From a virus, in UHGV virus genome UHGV-0124386: 51,920 nt of DNA; one strand, 5' to 3'. The notes under the pieces are model-generated. The model searched no databases, was not told the DNA's origin, and was given only the letters and a program-made list of their open reading frames with translations. Both the position numbers and the translations under genes were made by a program. Position 1 is the first letter of the stretch. Every line of letters starts with the position of its first letter. Positions 905 through 50,507 of the stretch are shown here, piece by piece.

Positions 905-1081
905 TTACGCCACAGTTACATTGTCAACTTTGATAAAATATTCAGGGTGATTTTCTATTTCGTGCTTAAAGTGCGCGTGACACAATCGCCAATCACGCAC
1001 CTGGTTGTGAAAGTAATAAACGTATTCGCCATCAATCTTATACAAAATGCCTGTAGGTTTAGCCATGTAATAACGAGCCAT
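905..1081 (-). CDS. small hypothetical protein (58 aa), translationally coupled to ninB
   Basis: Hand-translated MARYYMAKPTGILYKIDGEYVYYFHNQVRDWRLCHAHFKHEIENHPEYFIKVDNVTVA; its ATG overlaps the ninB stop (TAATG); below ORF-track size cutoff. Confidence 0.3.
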   Translation of the reverse strand: MARYYMAKPTGILYKIDGEYVYYFHNQVRDWRLCHAHFKHEIENHPEYFIKVDNVTVA

Positions 1082-1512
1082 TATTGCCCCCAGCGTTTTA
1101 TGAATTCCTCGTTTAATTTCGTATCACCCGACCATTGAACATCATGTTCAGCACCGAACGAGTAAATTAATTCGATTAGTTCACTGAATTCTGATTTACT
1201 CATTCGACTTGTAGATGTTCCCAATACAACGAAGCCGGATTTATCCAGATTAGGCACGACGCCATATTTTTTAAGCCCGGCGGTGAATACCGCTTTCCAG
1301 TCTTCCGGCGACAGCTTCTTACCGTACCAATTAACCTGATCACTAATGTCGGTTAGCAACGCCCATAGAAGGCTATTTTGGCTTAGCGAGCGGGTTTTCT
1401 CCTGGATGGTAATTATCAGCGGGCTTTTGCTATCAGGCTGGATCTCTCTTATCTGCCTGATAGCGTTTTCTTTTACGGCGTCGTTAACTACTTCAAACCT
1501 AATTTGTCTCAT
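1081..1512 (-). CDS. ninB: NinB (Orf) family recombination protein (143 aa)
   Basis: Translation aligns along its length with recalled lambda NinB/Orf (e.g. ITIQEKTRSLSQNSLLW vs VTIQERNRSLDQNRKLW; PNLDKSGFVVLGTSTSRMSKSEFSELIELIYSFG vs PNLAGNGFVVIGQSTSRMRVGEFAELLELIQAFG). Confidence 0.8.
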   Translation of the reverse strand: MRQIRFEVVNDAVKENAIRQIREIQPDSKSPLIITIQEKTRSLSQNSLLWALLTDISDQVNWYGKKLSPEDWKAVFTAGLKKYGVVPNLDKSGFVVLGTSTSRMSKSEFSELIELIYSFGAEHDVQWSGDTKLNEEFIKRWGQ

Positions 1513-1730
1513 AATACACCGTTGCTATTTTTCCACTGCGCCCGCGCATACATGATCGCCCGCAAAGAAATTAGCCGCGAGCTTGTCATGAAAGCGCTTT
1601 TTAAGTATCTCATATCAACCACAACAGGCTTATCAGGATTATCGCCTCTCATGTATTCCGCAATTGTGCTAAAGTCTTCTAATGTTAAATCTAATTCCTT
1701 ATTCATGACAGCCCCCTCTGCACAATCCAC
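1509..1730 (-). CDS. hypothetical protein (start uncertain, up to 73 aa)
   Basis: ORF track; packed between ninB and upstream genes with overlapping boundaries. Confidence 0.3.
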   Translation of the reverse strand: MDCAEGAVMNKELDLTLEDFSTIAEYMRGDNPDKPVVVDMRYLKSAFMTSSRLISLRAIMYARAQWKNSNGVL

Positions 1731-1924
1731 ATTGTGCTTCTTAATTCCCCACGCAGCGCCCGTAATGCATCGCGCATTGGCACGAAAACCCGGTTAAATT
1801 TTACGTGTTTATATTTCCGCATCAGTGGCGGCGTATAAACCATCGCGCCGCAAGAATTGCATGGAAAACGGAAATGTGATTCATCAATGAATGTTTCAAC
1901 TGAATAAAAGATTACCCGTCTCAT
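1703..1924 (-). CDS. hypothetical protein (73 aa, CxxC-containing)
   Basis: ORF track; FPCNSCG motif; overlapping boundaries with neighbours. Confidence 0.3.
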   Translation of the reverse strand: MRRVIFYSVETFIDESHFRFPCNSCGAMVYTPPLMRKYKHVKFNRVFVPMRDALRALRGELRSTMWIVQRGLS

Positions 1925-2484
1925 AATTCTAACCCCGTTTCGCTGTTAAGTTTTTCGATTTCAAATACTGGTTTATCCGGCAGCAGGCCGTTATTTTTCC
2001 GGTATTCGTTCAGGCGGCTGTTAAATTCAAATACGATAGGACTCGAACAACCATAGAAGCGAGCTGATCTAAAAAAGTATTTCCCATCAAATTTATTAAC
2101 TGTTAATAAATTTTCACTGCCTAACATCTTTAAAACCCGACAAATTTTCCTCTGTTTTATTTCGAGTTTTAATTCTTTTTTAACATCCTCAGCAGAAAAA
2201 TAATCGCTACTATTCAGAAATAAAGGCATGATTTTTTTTATTGCCATTTCGCGCACTGACTTCAAGCAATATGATAATCGCGGCCCTCCCATTTCCACAG
2301 GAATAATAGCGCCGTCAGAAACCATATCACGCAAACTATTAACGATCTCGATTCCAGGACCTGGAATAGATTTAATAATTGTTGCTTCACCAGCAACAGT
2401 GGCATCCTGTAAAAATTTCGCTATTTGTGTTTTATAAATGGTTTTCATTGTTTCTAGCCTCGTTTTAAGCACAAAAACATCCAC
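1921..2484 (-). CDS. hypothetical protein (187 aa)
   Basis: ORF track; no recognisable motif. Confidence 0.4.
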   Translation of the reverse strand: MDVFVLKTRLETMKTIYKTQIAKFLQDATVAGEATIIKSIPGPGIEIVNSLRDMVSDGAIIPVEMGGPRLSYCLKSVREMAIKKIMPLFLNSSDYFSAEDVKKELKLEIKQRKICRVLKMLGSENLLTVNKFDGKYFFRSARFYGCSSPIVFEFNSRLNEYRKNNGLLPDKPVFEIEKLNSETGLEL

Positions 2485-2527
2485 CAGAAAGCGGTCAACT
2501 TTCCGGTAAGCCGTTTGCTCAAGTTAA

Positions 2528-50026: not shown

Positions 50027-50028
50027 AA

Positions 50029-50054
50029 AACGGGGCATAAGCCCCGTTTTTTTA
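50029..50054 (+). terminator. rho-independent terminator after J
   Basis: AACGGGGC-ATAA-GCCCCGTT followed by TTTTTTAT. Confidence 0.75.
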
Positions 50055-50064
50055 TGCATTGTTT

Positions 50065-50310
50065 TTATTTTTTACACCCATCATTTACACCAGAAAAATG
50101 GATAGGTAAATTACATTCACTGTCAATAATTTTACCTTGTAGTTGTTTTTCTTTCCATGAGTCAGTATTGAAATAACTCGAACGTTGGTTATCAAGGCCA
50201 GTATCACCATATTGAGCAGTGCCAGCATCACTCTTATCTGTCGAATTTACAGAAGCAAAAGCACCAAAAGACAGAGCTGATAAGATGCAAGCAACAATTA
50301 GTTTTTTCAT
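50065..50310 (-). CDS. small secreted protein (81 aa with signal peptide), antisense moron after J
   Basis: Signal peptide MKKLIVACILSALSFGAFA; SD AAGGTGA; ORF track extends to 50367. Confidence 0.45.
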   Translation of the reverse strand: MKKLIVACILSALSFGAFASVNSTDKSDAGTAQYGDTGLDNQRSSYFNTDSWKEKQLQGKIIDSECNLPIHFSGVNDGCKK

Positions 50311-50507
50311 TGTATTCACCTTACTGTTTGTTTTACTGTCATTTGTTGTTCGTGATGATCCACCCATCCGATGAGCAAATCACCGCAGAAGCTATCATTT
50401 CGTATGTTGATATAGATCAAAAAATACATTATGTATAAGCCCAAAGTGTAACACAGATCACAAAATGGTAGAATTGTTTAGTTAATTAACAAAACGGAGT
50501 TATTGCG

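Follow-up and report, generated by a model that had tools for sequence, protein, structure and literature searches.

A dispersed 17-bp dyad is the likely operator of the lambda CI-type repressor in a temperate siphophage genome related to the mEpimmI phages

The virus genome UHGV-0124386 (the window: the whole stretch of 51,920 nucleotides that was analysed) is the genome of a temperate siphophage, 51.9 kb in length. The 8-mer ACAAAATG recurs in it, mostly between genes. In this study, ACAAAATG was found to be the core of a 17-bp pseudo-palindrome with the consensus (G/A)T(A/T)TACA-NNN-TGTA(A/T)A(C/T). We believe that this dyad is likely to be the operator of Rep, the lambda CI-type repressor of the phage, and that the promoters overlapped by pairs of dyads are likely to be controlled by Rep. 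The regulator-binding site with a CI-like protein as candidate, which the initial annotation had put forward as one of several readings, is the one that the comparison with homologous repressors supports.

Results

Enrichment and conservation of the 8-mer

Exact ACAAAATG was present 20 times on the two strands of the window. The initial annotation had counted 13 copies (plus strand, 1042, 3970, 7955, 8798, 9477, 41091, 43110, and 50460; minus strand, 5108, 12917, 16335, 21720, and 37806). All 13 exist, the one at 12917 having been given as 12918, but seven others had been missed (8043+, 16356+, 30166+, 34120+, 39373+, 41020-, and 43017-). The chance expectation of about 1.6 copies was also too low: 100 dinucleotide shuffles gave 4.18 ± 2.0 copies (largest 9), and an order-3 Markov model gave 3.07, under which ACAAAATG ranks first among the 8-mers of the window (z = 9.7). 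Under the same model, TACAAAATG ranks first among the 9-mers (12 vs. 0.71 expected). The excess is not an artefact of AT-rich composition. As a further null, an order-2 model was trained on nothing but the AT-rich segments (19.9 kb, the sites themselves included); these segments contain 18 copies vs. 1.9 ± 1.4 expected (largest 6 in 300 simulations). Other over-represented words were CGGGTTTT (15 vs. 2.8), ATGGCCCG (10 vs. 1.3), GCCCGCGC (13 vs. 2.2), and TCCGGTA (19 vs. 5).

The closest phages are those of the Escherichia coli mEpimmI group (mEp021, mEp010, mEp554, mEp044, mEp013, mEp515, and MagusPhagus), with approximately 85–87% identity over most of the window length. Prophages in 36 complete E. 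coli genomes also match the window, at no more than 91% identity over the segment tested. Annotation comparison showed that the gene order parallels that of mEp021. The motif is conserved in these phages: it stands at matching intergenic places in the mEpimmI relatives (about 85% identity), and mEp021 and mEp010 each carry 15 copies in their first 50 kb, mainly at equivalent intergenic spots with diverged flanks. Over 97 related IMG/VR loci and two phage records, 807 copies were counted, which fall into about 25 recurrent location classes, many of them present in 30–48 loci. Literature searches for the motif sequence returned nothing relevant. In the E. coli of the human gut, mEpimmI phages are reported to be as common as lambdoid phages (PMC11893012).

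From the 8-mer to a 17-bp dyad

When the intergenic location classes were weighted equally, the logo read gTWTACAAAATGKAW, in which the half-site GTWTACA and a weaker mirror half TGTAWAC flank a 3-bp centre. ACAAAATG spans this centre together with the last 3 bases of the half-site before it and the first 2 bases of the half-site after it, and its high count arises because AAA/TTT is the preferred centre. TACA-N3-TGTA occurs 7 times vs. 0.52 expected; two of these sites, TACATATTGTA at 43052 and TACATTATGTA at 50425, do not contain the exact 8-mer. When dyads were scanned for with the centre left free, 7 sites scored 14 bits or higher vs. 0.33 in simulated sequence. At the leftward early promoter, relatives deviate from the window in the centre triplet only (ACA-GAA-TGG and ACA-TAA-TGG). 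The longer matches described at the outset are real with small offsets, GTATACAAAATGGAT lying at 8794–8808 and its complement at 16332–16346. The inverted pair before the tape-measure gene exists too (TATACAAAACGG at 37777–37788 and CATTTTGTATA at 37806–37816), but its left arm had been placed at 37767.

Rep and the putative operators of homologous repressors

Rep matches lambda CI over both domains (PDB 3bdn, E = 1.4e-20, residues 15–208), and its homologues carry PF01381 and PF00717. The protein is 90–100% identical to the Rep of all mEpimmI relatives. No heteroimmune relatives were found in IMG/VR, where all 44 relatives have a Rep of at least 90% identity, and a co-variation test within the group is impossible because they all share one repressor. 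A protein search found Rep homologues at 33–55% identity, many with a nearly unchanged recognition helix (GITKG..SHWLN.RREP), and their loci were compared. Six of these loci (L101, L102, L103, L105, L106, and L107) encode repressors 39–55% identical to Rep.

In lambdoid immunity regions, a cro-like gene lies approximately 95–120 bp from the repressor gene in the opposite orientation, and the gap contains the three OR operators. The 17-mers found in this gap in the compared loci are listed in Table 1; the L101 locus begins only 208 bp before the repressor gene, so no cro-like gene was seen in it. Wherever positions were computed (L103, L105, L106, and L107), the centres of the gap operators were 33 and 26 bp apart. 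The site sequence varies with the recognition helix: the same dyad accompanies the same helix in six prophages, TGTACA accompanies a changed helix, and none of these dyads accompanies a P22-C2-type helix.

Three further loci, L098–L100, encode a repressor with 55% identity to Rep and an identical recognition helix, and their genome layout is that of the window. The Cro-position protein of L098 is an HTH_3 protein without relation to that of the window (E = 1.6), and the 8-mer occurs 12 times in 20.6 kb of L098 vs. 1.6 expected, the same degree of enrichment as in the window. Since L098 keeps the motif next to an unrelated Cro-position protein, the motif follows the repressor helix and not the Cro-position protein or the host species. 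The 81-aa Cro-position protein of the window was also considered as the binder and was rejected, as it is replication-initiator-like and is replaced by the HTH_3 protein in L098, where the motif is kept.

A half-site matrix was built from 27 operator-position 17-mers of L101–L103, L105, and L106 only, with no window sites. The training sites score 11–20 bits (median 16.4). With this foreign matrix, 10 window sites scored 14 bits or higher (strong sites, Table 1) vs. 0.12 in simulated sequence (largest 1) and 0.26 with the AT-rich null. Eleven further sites score 5–9 bits, within the top 0.1% of 17-mers (moderate sites, Table 1). Nine of the strong sites are intergenic, spread from 5.1 to 50.4 kb, and eight of these are outside the immunity region. 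The strong site inside the portal gene could be a chance match or a functional intragenic site. Seven strong sites were found in mEp021 and nine in mEp010, and the late-region sites are kept in late-region relatives, 30 such loci longer than 20 kb having a mean of 3.6 sites of at least 13 bits. In L102 and L103, the only lambdoid loci long enough to judge, strong sites are confined to two operator clusters, whereas the window and its mEpimmI relatives have 7–10 strong sites over 50 kb. A matrix refined on the window itself was inflated by overfitting and was not used as evidence. We infer from the shared 17-mers that dimers of Rep would bind these sites.

Putative operators at the early promoters

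The leftward promoter (PL) and nutL lie within 150 bp upstream of rep, and the rightward promoter (PR) and nutR1 lie within 160 bp downstream. The only sequence common to the two segments is AAGT(T/A)TACAAAATGGA / AAGTWTACAAAATGGA, with 14 of 15 bases shared. On both sides of rep, the dyads overlap elements of the predicted early promoters, the -35 and -10 at PR and the -10 at PL. At PL, the dyad 7951–7967 spans 5 nt of the predicted -10 (TAAACT, 7950–7955, minus strand) and 12 nt of the spacer. The second dyad of this gap (7986–8002) corresponds to the middle operator ATATACA-TTT-TGTGTCT of the lambdoid relatives, and nothing operator-like was found at the third position of the gap between rep and the Cro-position gene.

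PR (TTGACT-17-TATATT, 8808–8836) was the one strong consensus promoter that the consensus scan found in the region, and it leads to nutR1 and the N-like gene. The last TTG of the dyad 8794–8810 is the start of the -35 hexamer TTGACT. This dyad is invariant in 28 distinct relatives, while the adjoining promoter spacer varies freely. In L101, L103, L105, and L106, the promoter of the N operon has the same 17+8+17 layout, in which the first operator ends in the TTG of the -35 and the second spans 5 bases of the -10. The L106 cassette reads ATATACATTTTGTATTG, CATCGTTA, AGATACGTTTTGTATAT, and T; the PR cassette of the window reads GTATACAAAATGGATTG, ACTCGATG, TTTTACGGGGCGTATAT, and T, in register with all four loci. 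Register was compared in these four loci; L102 and L107 have an equivalent operator pair at the N-operon promoter. The lambdoid operators of L101–L103, L105, and L106 are like those of the window in 17-mer consensus and recognition helix, and the 17+8+17 register lies over the N-operon promoter in both.

Putative operator cassettes at the tail islands

The tail cluster is broken by three short minus-strand islands, before the tape-measure gene (37856), M (41116), and L (43131). Copies of the motif had been placed in the immunity region, upstream of an early -35, and before the first tail gene after each antisense island, and this placement is correct. The 17+8+17 layout occurs four times in the window: at PR (8794–8835), before the tape-measure gene (37776–37817), at the M island (41031–40990), and at the L island (43090–43049). 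Of the nine strong intergenic sites, three have a partner of at least 5 bits exactly 24–25 bp away; under the null, the mean is 0.04 sites, and none of 5000 simulations reached three. A general test of neighbour scores over 23–36 bp was marginal (P = 0.03). The centre spacings are 25, 24, 25, and 25 bp at PR, the 12912/12936 pair, the tape-measure cassette, and the M-island cassette, respectively.

At the predicted promoter of the M island, the first operator ends in the TTC of the -35 TTCACG and the second lies over the -10 TATATA. At the promoter of the L island (TTGATC-17-TATATT, from the consensus scan), the first operator ends in the TTG of the -35 and the second lies over the -10. The dyad in the leader of M (41087) is degenerate (TGCAATATGTAAC) in the mEp021 subgroup. 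The tape-measure block is kept in 35 of 35 distinct relatives, even with a tape-measure protein that is only 47–73% identical, and the island on its left comes in at least four unrelated types among the relatives. This cassette would serve a leftward promoter of the island, and possibly a rightward one too. Promoters seem to coincide with several copies of the motif, as operator-covered promoters.

Sorting the copies of the 8-mer

The 20 exact copies comprise seven cores of strong sites, four cores of moderate sites, four copies in coding sequence or at a start codon, one at a boxA, and four that could not be assigned. By matrix score and position, about 11 of the 20 copies are operator cores. 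The four doubtful copies score -2.0 to -0.4 bits, 21720 far lower, with at most one poor half-site each, and those at 43110 and 50460 are of the GATCACAAAATG type. An inverted pair ACGAAATGGCA ... TGCCATTTTGT, followed by TTATATATAA, lies at 21690–21732; it was found in the window only, is absent from relatives, and is not operator-like by the matrix.

Table 1. Dyads, copies of the 8-mer, and genes of the window, and operator-position sequences of other prophages (strong, at least 14 bits; moderate, 5–9 bits; scores from the foreign matrix)
Feature	Coordinates	Strand	Sequence	Score (bits)	Remarks
Leftward early operon	about 7.9 kb down to integration end	-			81-aa gene, replication genes, helicase
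Rep repressor gene	8037–8684	+			215 aa; helix-turn-helix N-terminal domain and S24-peptidase-type C-terminal domain
Rightward early operon		+			N-like gene 9185–9475, erf, ssb, methylases, Q 17803–18525
Dyad 1038	1038–1054		TTATACA-AAA-TGCCTGT	6.4, moderate	copy 1042; half-good; between NinB-like gene and gene 231–890; 15 loci
Dyad 3966	3966–3982		GTTTACA-AAA-TGGAATA	8.9, moderate	copy 3970; overlaps stop of gene 3968–5086, upstream of helicase gene; 42 loci
Dyad 5103	5103–5119		GTTTACA-TTT-TGTATAT	16.3, strong	copy 5108; between stop of gene 5120–6043 and ribosome site of gene 3968–5086
Predicted PL	7950–7977	-	TTGATC-16-TAAACT		upstream of nutL boxA (7859–7872, -); both hexamers kept in relatives
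Putative PL operator	7951–7967		GTTTACA-AAA-TGGAATT (GTTTACAAAATGGAATT)	9.2, moderate	copy 7955
Second putative gap operator	7986–8002		ATACACG-TTT-TGTGACT (CATTTTGT in relatives)	8.8, moderate	35 bp from the first
Putative PR -35 operator	8794–8810		GTATACA-AAA-TGGATTG (GTATACAAAATGGATTG)	15.2, strong	copy 8798
Putative PR partner operator	8819–8835		TTTTACG-GGG-CGTATAT	7.9, moderate	8-bp gap; spans 5 nt of -10 TATATT
Dyad 9473	9473–9489		TAATACA-AAA-TGTAAAC	16.1, strong	copy 9477; starts on stop codon of N-like gene; gene of about 39 codons follows; 44 loci; L098 equivalent GTATACAAAACGTATAA
Dyad 9590	9590–9606		TTATACA-TAG-TGTTAAC	7.0, moderate	strong left half; just before erf
Dyad 12912	12912–12928		ATATACA-TTT-TGTATTG	18.6, strong	copy 12917; conserved in 33 loci
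Dyad 12936	12936–12952		ATATCCG-TTT-TGTAAGC (variant CGTTTTGT)	8.9, moderate	partner of 12912; centres 24 bp apart
Half-site 16266	16266–16282		GTTTACA-AAG-TGGCATC	1.9	weak; other side of t4; exact ACAAAATG in 41 relatives
Dyad 16330	16330–16346		GTATCCA-TTT-TGTATAC	16.2, strong	copy 16335; between terminator t4 and nutR2 boxA (16363–16376); 36 loci
Dyad 29142	29142–29158		TTATACA-AAC-TGTATCG	15.6, strong	inside portal gene; also in mEp010
Tape-measure left operator (putative)	37776–37792		CTATACA-AAA-CGGTATC	moderate	TTATACAAAATGTATTC (19.4 bits) in relatives
Tape-measure right operator (putative)	37801–37817		AAAGACA-TTT-TGTATAA	14.5, strong	copy 37806; 8-bp gap
Tape-measure leader, third site	37830–37846		GATCACA-TTT-TGCATGA	5.3, moderate	weak; GATCACA invariant in relatives
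M-island cassette, -35 side	41031–41015	-	GTTTACA-AAA-TGGCTTC	8.7, moderate	copy 41020; cassette 40990–41031
M-island cassette, -10 side	40990–41006	-	ATATACA-TCT-TGTTGCA	7.3, moderate	
M leader dyad	41087–41103		ATATACA-AAA-TGTAACT	15.3, strong	copy 41091; 13 nt before M start
L-island cassette, -35 side	43090–43074	-	CATACCA-AAA-TGGATTG		cassette 43049–43090; conserved
L-island cassette, -10 side	43065–43049	-	TTTTACA-ATA-TGTATAT	15.4, strong	conserved
Dyad 50422	50422–50438		AAATACA-TTA-TGTATAA	18.9, strong	strongest in window; upstream of last plus-strand gene, beside minus-strand secreted-protein gene
Copy 8043	8043	+			coding; encodes Rep N-terminal MKTKW
Copy 16356	16356–16363	+	ACAAAAT-GCTCTTTAAAAATC		last base is first base of nutR2 boxA
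Copy 30166	30166	+			coding, inside portal gene
Copy 34120	34120–34127	+			ATG is start codon of virion gene (mEp021 annotation comparison)
Copy 39373	39373	+			coding, inside tape-measure gene
Copy 43110	43106–43122		GATCACA-AAA-TGACAAG		doubtful; leader of L
Copy 50460	50456–50472				doubtful
Copies 43017 and 21720	43017; 21720				doubtful
L101 gap (Enterobacter)			GTATACG-TTT-CGTATTC, ATATACA-TTT-TGTGTCT, GAATACA-GTT-CGTATGA		
L102 gap (Citrobacter)			TAATACA-type sites		three to four in gap
L103 gap (metagenome)			ATATACA-TTT-TGTATTC, ATATACG-TTA-TGTGTCT, GTATACA-GCT-TGTATCA		
L105 gap (Serratia)			GTATACA-TAT-CGTATTC, GTATACA-TAT-TGTGTCT, CTATACA-AAA-CGTATAA		
L106 gap (Tatumella)			GTATACA-TTT-CGTATCT, ATATACA-TTT-TGTGTCT, TTATACG-GAT-TGTATTA		
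L107 gap (Shewanella)	2912–2987 of L107		TGTACA, not TATACA, half-sites		changed helix EVTPGGMGHWLNG; same three operator positions
L104 (Salmonella)			P22-type ATTTAAG sequences		same C-terminal domain, P22-C2-type helix; none of these dyads

Other features of the window

The lysis, head, and tail genes come after the rightward early operon. The Cro-position gene (7474–7719, minus strand) is divergent from rep, and its 81-aa product has no Pfam match; among the PHROG families, those of O-like N-terminal domains of replication initiators match it (E = 1e-19). Three boxA-like sequences, G(C/T)(A/T)CTTTAAAAATC, lie at 7859–7872 (-), 8879–8892 (+), and 16363–16376 (+), positioned as the nutL, nutR1, and nutR2 described for mEp021 (PMC11893012). 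The dyad 16330–16346 spans a -10-like TATACT (16342–16347), which suggests that nutR2 may have its own promoter just after terminator t4.

Three translation starts are nearly identical (GAGG-N-AATAACAT(T/A)ATG at 5084–5102 and 3947–3965 on the minus strand and at 9497–9508 on the plus strand, with GGTGACATTATG at 9497), and each has a copy of the motif approximately 24 bp upstream. They look like a duplicated ribosome-site cassette. Dam sites (GATC) are present inside the predicted -35 TTGATC of PL (7972–7977) and of the L-island promoter (43071–43076). GATCACA occurs at 16296, 37830, 43106, and 50456, and is invariant before the tape-measure gene, L, and the last plus-strand gene; as a separate word it was considered and dropped, not being enriched (9 vs. 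6 expected). The phage encodes a Dam-like methylase (about 14167–14706), and methylation-sensitive control through the Dam sites is possible.

In the L island, two adjacent minus-strand open reading frames (42236–42475 and 41990–42226) match consecutive parts of one HNH endonuclease family (phrog_99, positions 113–190 and 196–268) and look like a split or decayed homing endonuclease. In the 307-aa early protein of gene 5120–6043 (minus strand), repeated treble-clef zinc fingers of the DUF4379 type are combined with a CapR homology domain; its matches to T5orf172/MUG113 (GIY-YIG-like) are weak. A 37-bp segment of the portal gene (29902–29938) is 97% identical to a hypothetical gene of 14 Pseudomonas aeruginosa phages (vB_Pae_CF series), which are otherwise without relation to the window. 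In L098 (8546–8704), an inserted gene with an ANT/pRha domain (antirepressor-like) has two copies of the motif directly upstream, 39 bp apart, and sister contigs without this gene also lack the two copies.

Discussion

Other explanations of the motif

The motif might be a promoter sequence that recurs without a dedicated binder. The reverse complement CCATTTTG followed by TAnAnT would then be the T-rich end of a spacer and a -10, and the forward form at a -35 would be the A-tract of a proximal UP element. In agreement with this, a -10-like hexamer follows CATTTTG at 1042 and PL, ahead of nutR2 and M, and on either side of the tape-measure cassette; ACAAAATGG-N-(-35) is found at PR and two island promoters, and CCATTTTGGTATGAT is a canonical extended -10 before gene L. 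However, the hexamer partner stands at the right spacing for some copies only and at no fixed position, and the consensus scan gave no excess of promoters. The copies at 5108 and 9477 are 3–12 nt before ribosome-binding sites, and leaders starting there would be too short to include them. A promoter sequence also leaves the two-fold symmetry unexplained, and it does not account for the presence of the dyad at operator positions in unrelated prophages with nothing but the recognition helix in common, or for its absence where the helix differs. We consider this explanation unlikely. Read singly as a -35, a -10, or an UP element, the motif fits a subset of copies in each case, and a 434-type operator (ACAA-N6-TTGT) fits PR only, where the TTG is the -35 hexamer. 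CRP-like palindromes (GTGA-N6-TCAC) beside the motif were also rejected: 30 were found vs. 15 expected, but the clearest of them is the top of the terminator t4 hairpin.

The same dependence on the helix bears on a host protein, such as Fis, OmpR, DnaA, or IHF, that would sense host physiology at these sites. Compared by eye with consensus sequences, GTWTACAAAATGKAW agrees with the Fis pattern GNNYAWWWWWTRNNC over much of its length, TTTACATTTTG is identical to the beginning of the ompC C1 site of OmpR, and TTATACAAA is close to a relaxed DnaA box. Each resemblance applies to some copies only and does not account for the invariant TG or ACA. A host protein would not track the repressor helix across prophages of Enterobacter, Serratia, Tatumella, and Shewanella, nor would its site shift to TGTACA with the helix, and such a site is very unlikely. 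Function as RNA, proposed earlier as a signal for transcript restart or processing, is not supported. Inverted copies could form hairpins that terminate, process, or translationally gate transcripts, and inverted pairs do occur before the tape-measure gene, around terminator t4, and at 21690/21720. Pairing between the upstream copy and the region of the start codon is possible in the three ribosome-site cassettes, and two differences between the cassettes 5108 and 3970 appear compensatory. Yet the folding energies do not stand out from those of shuffles (z from -1.1 to +0.6), copies run both with and against the direction of transcription, and in the subgroup of the window both tape-measure arms are changed so as to break pairs; hairpin function is highly improbable. 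The last alternative, also raised in the initial annotation, takes the copies as short shared homologies at module borders that promote island exchange, comparable with the promoter and stem-loop cassettes of T4-type phages. Copies do stand where relatives switch to unrelated flanks: the tape-measure pair (4–5 flank types), 5108, 50460, 3970, and 8798. Many others do not: at 7955, 9477, 16335, 41020, and 1042, the flanking sequences on either side are homologous in every relative. In most phages, moreover, mosaic borders fall in intergenic regulatory regions in any case. A junction role is compatible with, and secondary to, operator function; it is not needed to account for the motif, and as the explanation of it we give it very little weight.

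Weighing the operator assignment

Several points weigh against Rep operators and Rep-controlled promoters as the meaning of the dyad. The gap between rep and the Cro-position gene has two moderate sites (9.2 and 8.8 bits) vs. three strong ones in the lambdoid relatives, the -10 operator of PR is degenerate (7.9 bits) with a left half that varies among co-immune relatives, and the -35-side operator of the L island (43074) reaches no more than 1.4 bits. Of the 20 exact copies, about 9 do not look like operators, being coding, at a start codon, at a boxA, or of the GATCACAAAATG type with less than 0 bits. Column conservation is 0.90 in the 17-mer and 0.82 in the flanks, a modest gap, and the centre triplet is not clearly freer than the rest of the 17-mer, divergence among relatives being low. 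The half-site TGTAWA resembles a -10 hexamer, so some of the promoter calls are partly circular. The foreign operators behind the matrix were inferred from their position and are mutually related. The mEpimmI repressor confers immunity and Rep021 is discussed in PMC11893012, where operators are not defined. Nevertheless, the operator assignment, with Rep control of the cassettes, remains the likely one.

Proposed action of Rep

Bound to the -35 and -10 operators of PR and to the -10 operator of PL, Rep would close both promoters, as CI does in lambda. The same 17+8+17 cassette is present at the leftward promoter of each antisense island. These promoters would come under Rep control; by analogy, because they share the layout of the lambdoid N-operon promoters, they would be on at induction or infection and off in the lysogen. 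Single or paired putative operators are also present between genes of both early operons and beside nutR2. The islands and any internal promoters would most likely be part of the immunity regulon on this analogy, silent in the lysogen and released together upon Rep cleavage. The sign of regulation may also be the opposite. Rep has aspartates at lambda CI positions 34 and 38 (alignment to 3bdn), and in lambda CI the acidic residues at these positions are the positive-control positions that contact sigma when PRM is activated from -42. The operator at each -35 is centred near -41 and the acidic residues are kept, so activation by Rep may occur.

Isolated sites may also block stray transcription as roadblocks. 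From their positions, the strong sites at 5103, 9473, 12912, and 16330 could be roadblocks, local operators, or loop anchors, and for each isolated copy we put the chance of function at roughly even. A wider proposal is that Rep governs a genome-wide regulon, in which cassettes wire the tail-operon islands to the lysis–lysogeny switch, lone operators between early genes act as roadblocks or anchor long-range loops formed by repressor tetramers, and the prophage is kept silent as a multiply looped unit. We regard this proposal as tentative and rather doubtful.

Comparison with known repressor systems

The system resembles lambda CI and its OR and OL operators in several respects. The repressor is of the helix-turn-helix and S24 type, the two halves of the 17-bp pseudo-palindromes are unequal, one being good and the other poorer, the TTG of the -35 forms the end of one operator and a second operator lies over the -10, and the centres are 24–25 bp apart. 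Lambda OR2 (TAACACCGTGCGTGTTG beside TTGACT) and OR1 are laid out like the PR cassette of the window. The half-site differs, being TATCAC in lambda and TATACA or TTTACA here. Unlike in lambda, there are only two gap sites, rep is co-oriented with the N-like operon, and operator-grade sites and whole cassettes are located far outside the immunity region, including in the tail cluster.

Dispersed repressor sites are known from the C1 operators of P1, the stoperators of the mycobacteriophages L5 and Bxb1, and the conserved inverted repeats of phiC31. These phages likewise have at least 10 immunity-repressor sites across short intergenic spaces in early and late regions. The L5 stoperators and P1 operators are asymmetric, and those of L5 are oriented with transcription. 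In contrast, the sites of the window are dyads in either orientation, with the 8-mer on either strand in both operon directions; its repressor is of the cleavable lambda CI/LexA type, and it has several complete two-operator cassettes. The immI region of P22 (ant, mnt, and arc) is inside the late operon, and ant is controlled by its own small repressors Mnt and Arc. It is similar to the tail islands as a separately promoted, opposite-oriented regulatory island among late genes, and the mEp021 island before L is annotated with a putative antirepressor. The islands described here differ in that they appear to carry the operators of the primary repressor.

Implications

The lambda-type operator is of a known kind; what sets this variant apart is that the operator is dispersed and, above all, that the complete early promoter–operator cassette is used again at the tail islands. 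For the mEpimmI phages, an operator sequence, two early promoter–operator regions, and a list of extra sites are now proposed. The site matrix can be used to annotate the immunity regions of many enterobacterial prophages with the same repressor family, and L107, as a natural co-variation of helix and half-site, could guide studies of specificity. If the cassettes are functional, the islands of the tail cluster would be induction-coupled early genes rather than morons expressed in the lysogen. Their cargo (proteins of unknown function, homing-endonuclease remnants, and an antirepressor in relatives) would then have to be reinterpreted, and the dispersed P1 operators and mycobacteriophage stoperators would have a counterpart of the lambda type. 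If the genome-wide regulon is true, the islands wired to the switch would include, in some relatives, an antirepressor gene.

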